Shown here in pieces: positions 24,758 to 53,687 of a DNA stretch of 64,000 nucleotides. Where the stretch lies: UHGV virus genome UHGV-0275551; one strand, written 5' to 3'. This DNA comes from a virus. Position numbers and translations under genes: made by a program. Below the pieces are notes generated by a model, which saw only the letters and a program-made list of their open reading frames with translations, did not search any database and had not been told where the DNA came from. Within the stretch, counting starts at the first letter, position 1. Each line of letters starts with the position of its first letter.

Positions 24758-26173
24758 TTACCAGATATAACGGTCAATCATTACTGCTTTGAGCATTACA
24801 CTGATTGGGTCAAACTTCTCACCACCAAGCAGAGCTTTTAAAGTGGCTGGAGAGAACCCTGATACCATTGCTACACCGTTATCCTTAACAGATACTTCGC
24901 AAGTACCATTACGGTTTGCTAAGTACCAGAATACCAGTTGTGGCATCTCATATCCAGCTTTTTTGTACTTACTCTGAATTGCTTCAAAGTTTGTACGACC
25001 GTTAGCCCCATCAACCTGATTAAACTCCATATCGGAGAAGATGATAAGCTTACTTGGCATATCTTTCTGAGTCAAGTTGTTTCTTTTGCCTGTCTCAAGA
25101 ATACGGTCAAAAGCTGCTTGTAAGTTAGTTGAGCCATATTCAACGTGTCGCATCACCTGACGATGACGGTTTCGTAAATCACCACTCAGTTCGATGAAGT
25201 GAGGGTTTGTTGAATAAACCATCAACTCATTCTTAAAGCAACCTGTATTGCGTTCTGCTACATACAAGGCAAGTGATACACCAATATCCAGAGCAGTAAT
25301 GGAGCCAAAATTCACCCAAGACATTGAACTTGATACATCAGACATACACAAGATGTTTTCACCTTCTGCCATCCAGTTTGGTAGTGCTTTCCACTGCTCA
25401 TTAGCAACATCTGCATTACCATGCTTGACAGATTTAATCACATCGTATGGGTAAACAGCACCAGCATTAATCTTAGCCTCACCTTTTGATAAGGACTCAA
25501 TGTAAGCTTTGTAACGTTCTCCATCCTTACGGTTAAACAGTTTTTGGTAACGTGCAGCAGCAAGTGAGGGAACCTTACTGTAGTCAATCTTGCCAAACTC
25601 ATTAGCAGAGATTTTTTGCTCAACTGTATCAGATAGTGCAGATAACAGTGTGCGGTACTCTTTCTCGCTCAAGTTGGCAAACTTGCAGAAACGTTTTACA
25701 AACTGCTTATGACGTGGTTTGACTCGTGGTAACCACTTAGCCGCCAAACCTGCTGTTGCAGGGTCTAGTAATGCTGCTTCTAAATGTTTGAAGGCATCTG
25801 TCTCGAAACAAGTACCCACGAAGATTTTGAAGTCATCAAAACGACCAAGTTCTGCAATCTTATCCATAATGCGAAGAACCTGTGTAGGCTCTAAAACTTT
25901 ATCTTCAATTGCTTGAAGCAAAACAGTTCTGAAGGCTTTACGCTCACCCATACCTTCTCGTACATCTCGCATATGAAGCAAAATACGAACTGCAACATCA
26001 ACATCCTCACGCAAAGCTTTGTAGAACAAGTCTGGTAAGATTTCTACATTGCTACGGCTTGAACCAGCAGCTTTGTAAAAGTCTACAAGAGCAGACATTG
26101 ATGAAGTATGGTTTACAGCACCATTTTCAGTTCGACCTGCATGAAGGTGCGCATGTTTAAATAATTCGCTCAT
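24758..26173 (-). CDS. vWA-domain protein with about 280-aa helical N-terminal domain
   Basis: 471 aa; MIDAS-like DxSxS (ILCMSDVSSSMSW) and KLIIFSDMEF strand typical of von Willebrand A domains. Confidence 0.55.
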   Translation of the reverse strand: MSELFKHAHLHAGRTENGAVNHTSSMSALVDFYKAAGSSRSNVEILPDLFYKALREDVDVAVRILLHMRDVREGMGERKAFRTVLLQAIEDKVLEPTQVLRIMDKIAELGRFDDFKIFVGTCFETDAFKHLEAALLDPATAGLAAKWLPRVKPRHKQFVKRFCKFANLSEKEYRTLLSALSDTVEQKISANEFGKIDYSKVPSLAAARYQKLFNRKDGERYKAYIESLSKGEAKINAGAVYPYDVIKSVKHGNADVANEQWKALPNWMAEGENILCMSDVSSSMSWVNFGSITALDIGVSLALYVAERNTGCFKNELMVYSTNPHFIELSGDLRNRHRQVMRHVEYGSTNLQAAFDRILETGKRNNLTQKDMPSKLIIFSDMEFNQVDGANGRTNFEAIQSKYKKAGYEMPQLVFWYLANRNGTCEVSVKDNGVAMVSGFSPATLKALLGGEKFDPISVMLKAVMIDRYIW

Positions 26174-41947: not shown

Positions 41948-42140
41948 CCTACCTGCACGATTCTAAAATGATTTTTCTTGCCCGACCTGAGCGGGGTCTG
42001 CACGTTTTGAAAATGAAAAAGCTCTTTGGAGATTACCTGCACAGTTTGAAAATGAATTTTCTCTTTGGAGTTCAAAATTCTCTCTACAGATTTCTCTACA
42101 GAACTCTACCTGCACAATCCTGAAATGAAAAAGCCCTCCT
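41948..42140. repeat. four dispersed direct repeats of about 35 bp in the intergenic region
   Basis: copies of cctgcacNNttNtNaaaatgaNNtt at about 41948, 41995, 42032 and 42104. Confidence 0.55.
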
Positions 42141-42201
42141 TACCTGAAAAATTTACCAGATAAGGAAGGCTTAGTCTATTGTAAATATTATACAGAGTTT
42201 C

Positions 42202-42987
42202 TTAGTTCTTTGCGTCTAAGAAGGTAACTTCTGGTGAAGAGAAGACCGTCTCGATATCCTCATCAGTTCTTGCATAAATATATGTATCTGCATCACTGCC
42301 AAATGTTACGGCTATCCTGTGATTGCTCTTCGACAGGTGGGTAACTAGAGCGTTACTTAGAGACATCTTCTCAACCGGAGGGTTACTTTGATGTATCTTA
42401 CCTTTTCTTCGTCTGAAGAGGGTAACTGTATCATCTTTGAACGTTACTACACCTGCAAAGTATTCTGGTTCACAGTAGTTATTCCAACCTGAGCGTAACT
42501 TGTGGTACATCTCTCCTTCGTAGACATACAGATAAACATCTACACTCTTCATCACCTGATTAATGATAACTGTGACGGCTTGAGGGTCAAGTCCACCGAT
42601 ACCTGCACCAATCATAGGTAAACCAACCTTCTTCAACTGATTAACTTCACAGTATCTGTTAAGCTGTTTCAAAGATGACTCTAAAGCACTGTATCGGGCA
42701 TCTTTACCAGTCTTAAGCTGAGTGTAAAGGTTAGCTATACGACCTTGTTTTAAACGTGCTACAGAGAAATTACCCAGTAAATTTTCACAAGGTTTGTGTC
42801 CTATACCACCTGCATATAGATAAACTTCTGTATCGGTCTCATATGCTTTTGGGTAAAGTTTAGAAATCTTGTCAGCGATACCTGCACCCATTAAGTTCAT
42901 ACAGTTGCAACCGTGACCGATGATGTCAAACTTACCTTTATCAAATGCGGCAAAGATATCACCATTAATTATTTTTACAATACCCAT
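42202..42987 (-). CDS. macro-domain protein with about 100-aa C-terminal extension
   Basis: 261 aa; N-terminal IINGDIF...DIIGHGCNCMNLMGAGIADKI resembles the macro-domain ADP-ribose-binding signature. Confidence 0.55.
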   Translation of the reverse strand: MGIVKIINGDIFAAFDKGKFDIIGHGCNCMNLMGAGIADKISKLYPKAYETDTEVYLYAGGIGHKPCENLLGNFSVARLKQGRIANLYTQLKTGKDARYSALESSLKQLNRYCEVNQLKKVGLPMIGAGIGGLDPQAVTVIINQVMKSVDVYLYVYEGEMYHKLRSGWNNYCEPEYFAGVVTFKDDTVTLFRRRKGKIHQSNPPVEKMSLSNALVTHLSKSNHRIAVTFGSDADTYIYARTDEDIETVFSSPEVTFLDAKN

Positions 42988-43188
42988 TTAACATCTCTCC
43001 CAAGATTCTTTGTCTTCTGAAGGTTTTACACGTTGTCCTTCGTGGTCTACCCAGATGCACCCACAACCTTCACAGATTACTGGCATTGCATAACCAGCTT
43101 TAAAGTCATCTTCAGTGATAAGACCTTTTAAGTCACCTGTATCACGTCCGAACATTTCAATAGAACAGTCTTTGCAGAAGTCAGCCAT
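42988..43188 (-). CDS. hypothetical Cys-rich small protein
   Basis: 66-aa track ORF; CKDC...CEGCGC cysteine pairs. Confidence 0.4.
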   Translation of the reverse strand: MADFCKDCSIEMFGRDTGDLKGLITEDDFKAGYAMPVICEGCGCIWVDHEGQRVKPSEDKESWERC

Positions 43189-44529: not shown

Positions 44530-44553
44530 GAAAAAGGCTCCCGAAGGAGCCTG
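44530..44553 (-). terminator. rho-independent terminator
   Basis: aggctcc-cgaa-ggagcct hairpin followed on minus strand by TTTTTCATTTC. Confidence 0.5.
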
Positions 44554-44563
44554 TATCTTAACC

Positions 44564-45043
44564 TTAACCGAGGACTTTAGCAAGGATATTTGCAGCCATC
44601 GAAGAAGCTTTTGCAGCAGCAACTACGCCAGCTTTGACAGTGCTATCCTTAATAGCAGATACCGTTGCAGCATCAGTAAAGAGATAAGTGATTGTTTTGG
44701 AACCACTTGTAAAGGAAAGCATAAGAGTAGTTTCCAGATTGAAAGAGCGATACGGAGCACCTTCTTTAACGATACCTTCAGCACCTAACTCTGAAGCCTT
44801 ACCCATATCATAGATAGTCATCAGGTTTTCTTTGTGTGCAGTCGTTGAACCAACACCTTTTACGTGCTTCTTAACGTTCAACAATGCACGATATTCACGA
44901 ATGCTACCATCAGCTTTTACATTAACAGCACGGAAAATTTTACCTTCAAAGTTACCTTGAATCATTTTACGAACTACTTCAGATTTGTTTGCCGTATCGT
45001 CCAGTGCTACCGTAATGATATTGTTCATAAGTTCTTCTCTCAA
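44564..45043 (-). CDS. hypothetical protein
   Basis: 159-aa track ORF. Confidence 0.4.
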   Translation of the reverse strand: MREELMNNIITVALDDTANKSEVVRKMIQGNFEGKIFRAVNVKADGSIREYRALLNVKKHVKGVGSTTAHKENLMTIYDMGKASELGAEGIVKEGAPYRSFNLETTLMLSFTSGSKTITYLFTDAATVSAIKDSTVKAGVVAAAKASSMAANILAKVLG

Positions 45044-45735
45044 TGTTTAACTAACATGGTTTTAATGTGTGGAAGGATTCTGTTTACCTTCTGAACATTC
45101 TTCTCTGTATCTTCTATAAAACATACTATATCAAAGTAAGGCAGAATGCAAGACTGAATCATCCTCACTTTCAAACTTTCTGCACTTATAGAGTTAGTCC
45201 CAAAACCACGCATAAAAAGCATGTAATCATGCTCTATGTAATGCCTTAAAAACATCTCAGTAGGTATTCTCTGAGATTCACCTCTTGCTGTCAATAGTCC
45301 AATGGCAGCGTGATTAGAAATTGCATCAATAATATTGAAAACATACGTTGGTTTTGCACTTACAGAGTCAAGCAAATTGGTGTACTGTGAAAATGACCCA
45401 TCAATCAGTTCCGTTGAGCAATCTTCGTGATTAAAATTTGTCAGAACACCATCAATATCTGCTAAGATGAGGTTACCTTTTTCTACAAGGTCTTTATTGA
45501 CTATGACTAAACTGTCACGTCTTACACCTATAGTTTGTCCGGTCTCTTTGTCCACAACGTTCACAATTGGTTCTGATGTGTGGAACTCTTCAAGTGAACA
45601 TACAACTTCTCTTGCAGTATCTTCAAAATCCCTGCACTGTTCTGGAGTCCATACACAGGAATCAAGACCTAACTCATGAGGATGCAAGTCATAAGCGTGG
45701 CACAGGACTTCATCAGACTTTCTTAATTTTTTCAT
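45040..45735 (-). CDS. HAD-superfamily hydrolase (nucleotidase-like), putative
   Basis: 231 aa; motif I LILADIDGVLTN (DxDGVL) typical of HAD phosphatases. Confidence 0.45.
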   Translation of the reverse strand: MKKLRKSDEVLCHAYDLHPHELGLDSCVWTPEQCRDFEDTAREVVCSLEEFHTSEPIVNVVDKETGQTIGVRRDSLVIVNKDLVEKGNLILADIDGVLTNFNHEDCSTELIDGSFSQYTNLLDSVSAKPTYVFNIIDAISNHAAIGLLTARGESQRIPTEMFLRHYIEHDYMLFMRGFGTNSISAESLKVRMIQSCILPYFDIVCFIEDTEKNVQKVNRILPHIKTMLVKH

Positions 45736-50492: not shown

Positions 50493-52274
50493 TTAAAGCT
50501 GCTTGTCAATATTATTTCGAATATCACCAAGAGTTGTGTAACCGTACTGCTCAGAGTCGCTAAAGACTAAACGTAAAGCACAAGCTGGATGTTCAAGTGC
50601 ATCTGCAAAGCTCTGGAATCCATAGCCATCTACAGCTTTCAAATTCTCACCATCCCACATAGGTGCTACACCACCAAAGGCAGATTTCTTAACACCACTA
50701 TCTGTTTTAGGGTCTTTTGCAAGCATAATCTCTTTGCCACCAATGCTTGCAAGAGTTGCTTTGACAGCAAATGCAAAGGTGTCACGAGTCATGTACTGGT
50801 AAGTGTAAGAGCCTACACCAAACACTACGTTAGAGCTTGCAAAACCCATTTCATACAGACGCTTCAGGATTTCGTTTGCACGTTCCAACGTGATAGAGTC
50901 ACCATAGATAAGTCCAATGTGCTCATCCAGTACCTTAAAACCTTTAGAGTTGATAGTTCCTCCAAAGATGTTATACAAGGTCTTAATAGCTCCATCAATC
51001 TCTGCTACAGGGCGTGTTACAACGTTTGCAGAACCAACCATATAAGCGTTCTTCAACATCACTGTATCAGCAACTTCAAAGTCTTCTCTGTCAACAACCA
51101 TTTCGTAGCCTTCTGACAGTAGCCATCCAGCAATACCATAGCTGATGTTTTCAAGCTTCATGTTCAGAACAGCATTCAGCATTGTGTCACTGGCTTCCAG
51201 ATTGCTTAGGTGCTCATAATAAGCCTTTTTAGCACACTCTAAGTGGATTGCTTTATAACCTGTGACAATGTGTACAGGGTCTCCAGAGTCAGGACGAATT
51301 ACCAGTTTGCCATCACGTTCCATAATTTCTTTACGGAGTGCTGGTAAGATTTCTGACACAGTTCTCCAGAAGTTATAAGTGTCTGAAACAACACTTGCAA
51401 TACCAGTTGGATAAGTTTCTGTTAAGAAGCGACGGAAGGTTTGCAACTCACCTTTAAAGCGTCTTTCTTCTTCAACCAACTCATTACCACCTTCCCAAGC
51501 AATGTTTGCACACATTACAGAGTGTTCAGTGGCTGGTACAGAACCACCAATATCAGAGACTGGGTAAGACTGTCCGTAGATGCGTTTAGCTGTATATACA
51601 GCAGGGAAGCTATCAGTCCCTTTAAAGCTGGTTAAGTGGCCTACAGCGTTAAATGCGTCATCAGTAAAGCCGGACATACCACGCATAGCAAAGTCATGGC
51701 ACTGATAAGGTAAATGTAAGTCATTGTCGCAAGTAAGGTCAGCCCACTTCTTACAGATGCGTTTATAATGCAATGCAATAGTTGCAATGGTACAAGCCTT
51801 CCAAATCTCAGCAGAGAAAGCATCTTCCAGATATCCCGCTACCCAATGGAAACCTGAAACAGTGTTCTGGAAGACAATCATTGGTACACGCATAGGAACA
51901 ACTGTACCTTCTTCTACAGCGTATACTTCAACTGGTAGATAACCTAAGTCGTGAAGTGCTTCCCAATGCTCTCGACCGATAGCATCTTTACCCAGAACAC
52001 CATTCATGACTTCTAAGATTTCATCAATGGCTTCTTTTTTATCACGTTCAAAGAAAGTGGCGTTCCAGTGGTCTATCAAGTAATCTTTAACGAAACGTTG
52101 AATACCAAAAGCTACTACACCATCAATTGCTAAGGGGCTGTTAAACCACTTATCACTACGTGGTGTCAGGTTCAACATAAGATATTGCGTAGCATCTGGA
52201 TACTGATATATATGTGATGCCTTGTAAGCATCTGCATTAAGACCTGCTGGTACTGCGTAAAGTGACTTACTCAT
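50493..52274 (-). CDS. nadV: nicotinamide phosphoribosyltransferase-like protein (NadV/NAMPT family)
   Basis: 593-aa track ORF; overall resemblance to NAMPT/NadV-type phosphoribosyltransferases; adjacent to Prs-like gene. Confidence 0.55.
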   Translation of the reverse strand: MSKSLYAVPAGLNADAYKASHIYQYPDATQYLMLNLTPRSDKWFNSPLAIDGVVAFGIQRFVKDYLIDHWNATFFERDKKEAIDEILEVMNGVLGKDAIGREHWEALHDLGYLPVEVYAVEEGTVVPMRVPMIVFQNTVSGFHWVAGYLEDAFSAEIWKACTIATIALHYKRICKKWADLTCDNDLHLPYQCHDFAMRGMSGFTDDAFNAVGHLTSFKGTDSFPAVYTAKRIYGQSYPVSDIGGSVPATEHSVMCANIAWEGGNELVEEERRFKGELQTFRRFLTETYPTGIASVVSDTYNFWRTVSEILPALRKEIMERDGKLVIRPDSGDPVHIVTGYKAIHLECAKKAYYEHLSNLEASDTMLNAVLNMKLENISYGIAGWLLSEGYEMVVDREDFEVADTVMLKNAYMVGSANVVTRPVAEIDGAIKTLYNIFGGTINSKGFKVLDEHIGLIYGDSITLERANEILKRLYEMGFASSNVVFGVGSYTYQYMTRDTFAFAVKATLASIGGKEIMLAKDPKTDSGVKKSAFGGVAPMWDGENLKAVDGYGFQSFADALEHPACALRLVFSDSEQYGYTTLGDIRNNIDKQL

Positions 52275-52790: not shown

Positions 52791-53687
52791 CTAATCAATG
52801 GTTGCTACAGTAACTTGACCATAATGTGTTAAGCCACGGTCTTTAGCTTCCCCTAAAGAGTTTGTAGTGTAGATGTGGTCAATGCCATTGTCAAGAAGGT
52901 TTTCAACATCTTTAGAGAAGATACCGTGTGTTACATAGAGTTCCACACGTTTTGCACCTGCTTCACGAAGATGTTTAGCTGCTTCTATGAAGGTTCGACC
53001 ACCATCACAGATATCATCCAGAATCATGACGGTTTTATCTGTCAAATCAACATCATCAAGGATTCGCATACCAGTAATTTCACCAGTCTTAAGGTTGCGT
53101 ACTTTAGACATTGTGATATATGGTTTATCCACCTCTTTAGCAGTCTCTGCAATCTTCTTAGCAGCACCTGCATCTGGGGCTACTAAGTAATCAATCAGTG
53201 GGTCATTTGCATAGTGGACTGCAATTTCCTTTTGAGGAATACTCTGGAAGCAGTTAAACAGGTTATCTGGTACATAGCTGTGAGGGTCAACTGCACAGAC
53301 TGCACCAAATCTCATTGCATTTACCTGTTTAGCAAAAACCTTTAAAGCTGCTGCGTCGCCTTTAAACATGTGACGGTCATAACGTGCATTTGGTAAGTAG
53401 TAAAAGATGACAGTCTTTAAAGCATAATCATGAGGAATTAAATCATCAATTGCTTCTTTAGCAAGTGCCACAGCAAACAATGTATCCTTATCATAACCTT
53501 TTACAATCATAATCACATTGTTGATGGATGATGCTGCATAAGCAGTGAAATCAACAAACTCTGGCGAAAAGTGTCCACCAATCTCACCAGAAGGAAATTG
53601 GATGATGTTAAACTCTTCTTCATGAGTTCCTTTAGTTGGTGAATGAACTGTAACACGGATAGATGTTTTCATAGTTTTCTCTCTCAA
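52791..53687 (-). CDS. prs: ribose-phosphate pyrophosphokinase-like protein (Prs family)
   Basis: 298 aa; PRPP-binding loop VMILDDICDGGRTF and two PRTase-like halves. Confidence 0.6.
   Translation of the reverse strand: MREKTMKTSIRVTVHSPTKGTHEEEFNIIQFPSGEIGGHFSPEFVDFTAYAASSINNVIMIVKGYDKDTLFAVALAKEAIDDLIPHDYALKTVIFYYLPNARYDRHMFKGDAAALKVFAKQVNAMRFGAVCAVDPHSYVPDNLFNCFQSIPQKEIAVHYANDPLIDYLVAPDAGAAKKIAETAKEVDKPYITMSKVRNLKTGEITGMRILDDVDLTDKTVMILDDICDGGRTFIEAAKHLREAGAKRVELYVTHGIFSKDVENLLDNGIDHIYTTNSLGEAKDRGLTHYGQVTVATID

Follow-up and report, generated by a model that had tools for sequence, protein, structure and literature searches.

Macro domain proteins of phages have only recently been tied to defined roles in counter-defense, AdfM against DarTG2 and Adpp against aRES. 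Knockout of tk.4 in T4 turns the phage DarTG2 sensitive, and the gene has been named adfM (10.1101/2025.11.20.689424). In biochemical work, PhiKZ gp104, the AdfM of a chimallivirus, cleared DNA of the ADP-ribose added by DarT2, and DNA de-ADP-ribosylation of the DarG2 type needs an Asn and a Lys, namely, N22 and K80 of TaqDarG and N23 and K78 of PhiKZ AdfM (PMC13309987). Adpp of Vibrio phage Gary (KNV71_gp137) dephosphorylates ADP-ribose-1''-phosphate (ADPR-1''-P), letting the NAD+-rebuilding pathway NARP1 beat the aRES defense (10.64898/2026.01.28.702374). Here, we analyze a macro domain gene in a 64,000-nucleotide stretch of UHGV virus genome UHGV-0275551 (the window). The gene, at positions 42202 to 42987 on the minus strand, encodes a protein in which a macro half of the T4 Tk.4 type is joined to a C-terminal domain (CTD). 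The protein falls between the AdfM and Adpp groups and belongs to well-studied phages (Felix O1, wV8, and Bas63) with the prototype NARP1.

The window protein is very probably a catalytically competent counter-defense enzyme that acts on an ADP-ribose adduct or derivative. The nature of that adduct is a more tentative matter. We read the protein, with due reserve, as an early hydrolase of the Tk.4/AdfM type that would remove DarT2-type ADP-ribose from phage single-stranded DNA (ssDNA), with the CTD as a specificity or targeting module.

The macro half and its relatives

The gene is a single open reading frame (ORF) of 261 codons plus a stop, and the plus-strand frame across the same positions is riddled with stop codons. 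An earlier reading made without database searches (the sequence-only reading) had the extent of the ORF right, left the strand unstated, and proposed an N-terminal macro domain. That domain is borne out, as Pfam Macro (PF01661) matched at 32.3 bits against a cutoff of 22 (E=1e-7; profile positions 2 to 117 of 118). Moreover, structure prediction, which had been suggested as the check, returned a three-layer alpha/beta macro fold; the AlphaFold2 model, made from 19 relatives, is confident, with a predicted local distance difference test (pLDDT) of 87.6 and a full-length predicted template modeling score (pTM) of 0.86. Both glycine-rich loops for ADP-ribose and phosphate, MGAGIA (residues 33 to 38) and IGAGIGG (residues 126 to 132), are invariant or nearly so in the 19 relatives. 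The ADP-ribose-site residues H25, G26, N28, C29, N31, M33 to G36, A38, N86 to Q90, P124, G127 to I130, and G132 to D134 are invariant in relatives down to approximately 32% identity.

The macro half sits in the Poa1p/TARG1/DarG branch and is of the Tk.4 type. The family profile matched TARG1 (E=3.7e-11, the best sequence match in the PDB) and DarG (E=3.6e-9), and DarG was also the sole match of the window protein in PADLOC and NCBIfam, over the macro half of DarG only. In pairwise comparisons, the macro half scored 82 bits to T4 Tk.4, approximately 53 bits to Gary Adpp, 49 bits to the Adpp-type protein of Vibrio phage K460, 46 bits to TARG1, and 25 bits to PhiKZ AdfM. T4 Tk.4 is the nearest characterized homolog (35% identity; E=3e-24), and the two proteins have in common the motifs HGCNC, MGxGxA, NLYTQ, and PxIGAGIG. 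Both are products of early-region genes of virulent myoviruses. Tk.4 differs, however, in being a single domain of 155 amino acids that stops at the equivalent of residue ~157, whereas the window protein continues for another 104 residues, and tk.4 lies in the tk-vs region rather than in the rIIA/rIIB-spanin region of the window gene.

How the active site is built separates these macro proteins in two. N28 aligns with N23 of PhiKZ AdfM, the counterpart of N22 in TaqDarG, and the invariant Q90 stands at the position of K84 in TARG1, K80 in DarG, and K78 in PhiKZ AdfM, by hidden Markov model (HMM) alignment and a motif table. The K84/D125 dyad of TARG1 is not kept in the HMM alignment but aligns to Q90 and G131. 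The same Gln is present in T4 Tk.4, the NARP1-embedded macro protein of K460, and Gary Adpp. Because the Gln is common to these proteins and the window protein, we assign them to a "Gln-type" group of phage macro proteins, separate from the "Lys type" of DarG, TARG1, and PhiKZ AdfM. Within the motif table, the variant HGCNC plus NLYTQ is identical in the window clade and Tk.4-type proteins, and most NARP1-associated macro proteins carry HQxNC and N[LV]YGQY instead. In a neighbor-joining tree of macro proteins, the two-domain proteins group in a single clade (bootstrap support, 100%), and the NARP1-associated macro proteins form three well-supported separate clades.

Other relatives resemble the window protein in part. 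Gary Adpp is a Poa1p-like phage macro protein with the motifs HQCNC, MGRGIA, NVYGQ, and PLIGCGLAGGD, including the Gln, and the signature that it shares with the window protein may be written H-x-x-N-C, M-G-x-G-I-A, N-x-Y-x-Q, and IG-x-G-x-x-G. The two proteins are 27% identical (E=2e-13), and across the Adpp comparisons, identity to the window protein is only 27 to 28%. Adpp proteins carry the HQxNC/N[LV]YGQY variant, however, and all those listed are single domains of about 150 to 170 amino acids. PhiKZ AdfM is likewise a stand-alone phage macro domain enzyme of counter-defense, but it is only 23% identical, Lys type, and single domain, and it is directed to the phage nucleus. Among the close structural matches are human TARG1/OARD1 and yeast Poa1p, and the MGAGIA loop is identical in TARG1, but both are eukaryotic single-domain proteins with other biology. 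We take the H-x-C-N-C of the window protein to resemble the corresponding Poa1p motif.

The DarG2 antitoxins of Thermus aquaticus and Mycobacterium tuberculosis (PDB 5m31, 5m3i, and 7omu) differ further. The catalytic K80 is replaced by Q90, and the DarG equivalog NF048014 matched below threshold, with 47.5 bits against a cutoff of 250 and over profile positions 4 to 152 of 338 only. The DarT-binding C-terminal half of DarG (profile positions ~150 to 338) was unmatched in the window protein. Moreover, no darT lies beside the window gene, the neighbors of which are small phage ORFs and spanin genes, and the CTD of the window type is not consistently acidic. A search of plasmids for genuine DarG comparators yielded no more than entries with the generic name "macro domain-containing protein." Finally, we note that the name AdfM has been used by two independent groups for nonorthologous macro proteins, the Gln-type T4 Tk.4 and the Lys-type PhiKZ gp104, which score only ~21 bits to each other in pairwise BLASTP.

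The gene itself was known before, and its macro assignment is public annotation of long standing. The window comes from a Felixounavirus: over 4 kb surrounding the gene, it shares 96.9% identity with wV8 and the Escherichia coli O157 typing phages. AKE44958.1 ("macro domain protein"), from E. coli O157 typing phage 1, matches the protein at 100% identity, and the gene is the ortholog of Felix O1 ORF13 and wV8 gp012. Orthologs in hundreds of Felixounavirus records are labeled "macro domain protein," "phosphatase," or "O-acetyl-ADP-ribose deacetylase," and phrog_335 of PHROGs ("phosphatase") covers the full-length protein (E=4e-113). The note on Felix O1 ORF13 already reads "hypothetical 17.5 kDa protein in tk-vs intergenic region," a reference to T4 Tk.4. 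We did not find described, however, the two-domain build, with a lineage-restricted, fast-evolving C-terminal module and an unrelated module in a sister genus.

A fast-evolving C-terminal domain

The sequence-only reading had described the last ~100 amino acids as free of obvious motifs, and indeed, residues 158 to 261 had no match in Pfam, NCBIfam, or PADLOC. The region is nevertheless a real domain under purifying selection, because it is confidently predicted and its ratio of nonsynonymous to synonymous substitution rates (dN/dS) is low. In the full-length model, means of pLDDT over 10-residue blocks are 80 to 91 across residues 161 to 260, which are predicted to form a helix, six beta-strands, and a helix. 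When the CTD was modeled alone, the pLDDT was 78, lower than in the full-length context, and the pTM was 0.71. Among close orthologs, dN/dS is 0.12 to 0.26 for the CTD and 0.03 to 0.08 for the macro half. The CTD changes at several times the rate of the macro half: between Felixounavirus and either Mooglevirus or Suspvirus, identity is 47 to 49% in the CTD and 75 to 76% in the macro half. Invariant or nearly invariant positions are limited to P174, G179, and Y236, and the domain has no enzyme-like motif.

The CTD was seen nowhere but in Felix O1-like phages, always fused to the window-type macro clade. When its profile was run against 1.84 billion representative proteins, the only matches were relatives with both domains, two gene calls that had been cut short, and repeat proteins. 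The last, giant proteins and BamB, are PQQ-type beta-propellers or other repeats in which each repeat scored less than 12 bits, and we reject them because their E-values sum weak matches to beta-hairpins. One protein of 114 amino acids (P0032) looked like a stand-alone CTD, but it starts with the end of a macro domain and is thus a truncated gene call. When 16 CTD sequences were compared with Pfam, no family was matched by more than one of them, and the CTD by itself gave no match in a word-indexed search. A BFVD structure search returned only the protein's own ortholog, with a poor TM-score. The libraries searched held neither a sequence nor a fold match for the CTD. Simple gene fusion finds no evidence as the origin of the domain either, since no CTD-like ORF was found beside macro-only relatives (T4 tk.1 to tk.3 and vs, K460, and PhiKZ). 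We also considered whether the CTD might mimic ssDNA or bind nucleic acid, but its isoelectric point ranges from 4.8 to 9.7, which speaks against a conserved acidic or basic role.

Sister phages carry something else at the same place. The Kolesnikvirus ortholog (Erwinia phage vEam_W_25, locus L014 2498-3280) has 260 amino acids and, at the same position, an extension of ~105 residues. The CTD HMM found nothing in that extension, hhalign gave a probability of 0.1% for a relationship to the Felix-type CTD, and the extension is itself restricted to about 36 genomes of Kolesnikvirus type. Moreover, Felix-like genomes of ~88 kb, the size of Felix O1 itself, such as Salmonella phage Si3, encode a two-domain allele that has no more than 41% identity with the window protein, which indicates that close phages hold either very divergent alleles or the apparent product of allele replacement at one locus. 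Given the unrelated Kolesnikvirus extension and the 41%-identical allele, the macro scaffold of the Ounavirinae, the subfamily of the Felix O1-like phages, bears divergent C-terminal modules that are possibly exchangeable.

Candidate substrates and their rivals

How the protein might counter defense can be sketched from its relatives. The macro domain (residues 1 to 157) would bind ADP-ribose and hydrolyze the bond at the 1'' position of the adduct. Because the closest homology is to T4 Tk.4 (AdfM), the most likely substrate would be phage ssDNA carrying ADP-ribose on thymidines modified by the host toxin DarT2, and removal of the adduct would allow replication to proceed. The CTD, with ~104 residues, is predicted to be a small beta-rich accessory domain that appears packed against the macro domain. 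As a module for specificity or targeting, it may bind a partner or substrate that varies, since its rate of evolution is several-fold that of the macro half and an unrelated module occupies its place in sister phages. The early-region location of the gene downstream of rIIA and rIIB, in an order kept in relatives only 33 to 35% identical, fits a DarT2-directed hydrolase. The sequence-only reading had offered reversal of ADP-ribosylation-based defense or degradation of ADP-ribose-derived signals as possible roles; both have been shown experimentally for the closest phage relatives (Tk.4/AdfM against DarTG2 and Adpp against aRES), and for the window protein, we infer them.

Several points weigh against DarT2-modified DNA as the substrate. 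DarG, TARG1, and PhiKZ AdfM require a Lys for catalysis where the window protein has the invariant Q90, and no conserved Lys lies beside Q90. Since Tk.4 too has the Gln, the DNA chemistry of Tk.4-type enzymes is putative and unproven, and Adpp, a validated ADPR-1''-P phosphatase, also has a Gln there. For Tk.4, the anti-DarTG2 result is purely genetic and stems from one preprint, and the proposal as a whole relies on two preprints. Neither the PhageMaP Bas63 paper nor the literature on DarTG and Felixounavirus yielded a phenotype for the macro gene or, for Felix O1-like phages, any DarTG2 phenotype. Deep nodes of the neighbor-joining tree have less than 50% bootstrap support, and the grouping with Tk.4 therefore rests on pairwise scores and motifs. 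Furthermore, the window phage carries NARP1 of its own, the net charge of the CTD is not conserved, and any CTD binding partner is putative.

The main rival is that the protein is an Adpp-like phosphatase serving the phage's own NARP1, a possibility that we consider doubtful but worth keeping in view. Such an enzyme would convert to ADP-ribose the ADPR-1''-P made by RES-domain NAD+ phosphorylases such as aRES, and possibly breakdown products of ADP-ribose cyclic phosphate; starting from that ADP-ribose, Adps and Namat could restore NAD+. The window does encode the NARP1 pair, a Prs-like Adps of 298 amino acids (52791 to 53687, minus strand) and a NadV/NAMPT-like Namat of 593 amino acids (50493 to 52274, minus strand), NARP1 was first defined in the Felixounavirus Bas63, and the likeness to Gary Adpp extends over the overall signature and the Gln. 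Adpp genes, however, sit between or beside Adps and Namat, and NARP1-AP systems were delimited by a macro gene within two genes of the pair, in a study whose Table S1 lists no Escherichia or Salmonella phage (10.64898/2026.01.28.702374). The window macro gene falls outside that distance, as the NARP1 pair lies ~7.5 kb upstream on the same strand, with roughly 15 genes and two terminators between. Moreover, the macro half scores 49 to 53 bits to Adpp-type proteins rather than the 82 bits to Tk.4, its motif variant is that of Tk.4, and the listed Adpp proteins have no second domain. We favor, tentatively, DarT2-modified ssDNA over ADPR-1''-P.

Other activities seem unlikely to different degrees. 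The branch is versatile, and hydrolysis of another ADP-ribose conjugate or signal (ADP-ribosylated host or phage proteins or RNA, the latter as in CmdT-type mRNA ADP-ribosylation; O-acetyl-ADP-ribose; or Thoeris-type cyclic ADP-ribose signals) would be in keeping with the deposition of TARG1/OARD1 as O-acetyl-ADP-ribose deacetylase 1 and with the "O-acetyl-ADP-ribose deacetylase" label among public annotations. We regard that activity as unlikely: those public names are automated annotation, no homolog with such a function is closer than Tk.4 or Adpp, and the annotated wV8 genome shows no linked ADP-ribosyltransferase, sirtuin, TIR, or Thoeris counter-gene. Quite unlikely as well is a broader proposal for the Ounavirinae, in which the protein would be a two-module counter-defense factor and the CTD a new fold under arms-race pressure, swapped among lineages of Felix, distant, and Kolesnikvirus types. 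The CTD would then add a second, nonenzymatic function, either binding and inhibiting directly a variable host effector (such as DarT2 or a RES/ADP-ribosyltransferase toxin) or bringing the enzyme to its substrate, as a convergent analog of the toxin-binding domain of DarG. That the protein is a noncatalytic reader or sponge of ADP-ribose, with the CTD supplying activity or oligomerization, is highly improbable; the Lys of TARG1 and DarG and the Asp of TARG1 are absent (Q90 and G131), and some sources use the label "high-affinity ADP-ribose binding module," but N28 is invariant and its equivalent in PhiKZ AdfM matters for activity, Adpp is catalytically active despite the same Gln, and the CTD has no enzyme-like motif and only the three (near-)invariant residues. 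Just as improbable is a Poa1p-like housekeeping role in RNA repair, in which the protein would clear the ADPR-1''-P left by 2'-phosphotransferase tRNA repair and be tied to a "polynucleotide kinase" gene. A gene with that label in wV8 and Felix O1 does lie five to six genes upstream (45040 to 45735, minus strand), the phage has a large tRNA cluster, and the syntenic genes of distant relatives have weak or faint matches to HAD_PNKP. The product of 45040 to 45735, however, has no Pfam or NCBIfam support as a polynucleotide kinase, such that the label looks unreliable, and a terminator separates the gene from the macro gene. RNA repair is unlikely because of the unsupported kinase label and because the annotation of the whole wV8 genome lists no Tpt1/KptA 2'-phosphotransferase, 2H phosphoesterase, or RNA ligase.

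Why the protein matters depends in part on the CTD. The macro half offers a convenient test between a DNA de-ADP-ribosylase and an ADPR-1''-P phosphatase, both of which have a Gln instead of the DarG Lys. If the CTD, which is hypervariable and differs between lineages, is a specificity or toxin-binding element, then it would show phages diversifying one enzymatic scaffold against varied ADP-ribose-based defenses. If the CTD is a mere structural appendage, however, the gene would be an ordinary accessory gene that is already annotated.

Transcription unit and surroundings

The macro gene comes last in an early-region operon of ~2.4 kb bracketed by two terminators (Table 1). On the minus strand, the NARP1 pair is followed by two small genes, rIIA, rIIB, gp003, the "polynucleotide kinase" gene, gp005, and the upstream terminator, after which come the spanin genes, five or six small ORFs, the macro gene, and a strong terminator. 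Beyond that terminator lies a spacer of ~500 nucleotides and then small-gene cassettes flanked by direct repeats. Thus, the gene does not stand at the head of the early cassette region, as had been supposed from the sequence, but closes the unit before it. Relatives known from metagenome contigs, the same 33 to 35%-identical set, keep the order rIIA, rIIB, an HAD/PNKP-like gene, small genes, and the macro gene, and in the Erwinia Kolesnikvirus, the macro gene likewise directly follows the spanin genes.

Table 1. Positions of the macro gene, its domains and motifs, and the terminators that bound its unit
Feature	Position	Strand	Basis
Coding sequence of two-domain macro protein, 261 amino acids plus stop	42202..42987	-	ORF list, translation, 100% match to AKE44958.1, phrog_335
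Macro domain, residues 1-157, Poa1p/TARG1/DarG branch, Tk.4 type	42517..42987	-	
Signature GHGCNCMNLMGAGIADKI, residues 24-41, with catalytic-site Asn N28 and first glycine loop MGAGIA	42865..42918	-	Translation, invariance
NLYTQ, residues 86-90, with Q90 at the catalytic-Lys position	42718..42732	-	HMM alignment to TARG1, motif table, invariance
Second glycine-rich (phosphate-binding) loop PMIGAGIGGLD, residues 124-134	42586..42618	-	Invariance, translation
CTD, residues 158-261	42205..42516	-	Linker helix, six beta-strands, one helix
Intrinsic terminator ~30 nucleotides past the macro gene stop, ends the transcription unit	42131..42172	-	17-bp stem plus T-run; terminator also annotated there in wV8
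Upstream terminator, start of the unit (spanin genes, several small ORFs, macro gene)	44535..44552	-	Window analysis and wV8 annotation

Immediately upstream of the macro gene is an ORF (42988 to 43188, minus strand) for a Cys-rich protein of 66 amino acids with a zinc-ribbon-like CxxC…CxxCxC pattern and no Pfam match. The ATG of the macro gene, at 42987, directly follows the TAA of the 66-residue ORF and is served by the ribosome-binding site GGGAGAG; given that abutment, the two genes are probably translationally coupled. Homologs of the Cys-rich protein occur in 836 phage records, including those of rV5-like, T5-like, Pseudomonas, and Stenotrophomonas phages. A note in the wV8 annotation suggests that both genes match a single Felix O1 protein, but Felix O1 has separate ORF12 and ORF13, and because of those separate ORFs and the 836 records, which are independent of the macro gene, we reject a fusion.

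Two further observations concern other parts of the window. At 24758 to 26173 on the minus strand, beside the large tRNA cluster, is a gene for a protein of 471 amino acids with DUF2828 and DUF7788, annotated as "RNA-binding protein" in wV8. The PhageMaP preprint reports that Bas63 gp130, a Ro60-like protein encoded upstream of tRNA genes, counters the Ppl defense system. Finally, the spacer past the macro gene (41950 to 42128, minus strand) contains three exact copies of TCATTT-N7-GTGCAGGTA and one degenerate copy (…GTGCAGACC), ~75 to 85 nucleotides apart. The rest of the window has no copy of the pattern, and three matches were not reached in any of 100 shuffles. Lying before the small-gene cassettes, the repeats may be a set of regulatory or promoter elements.

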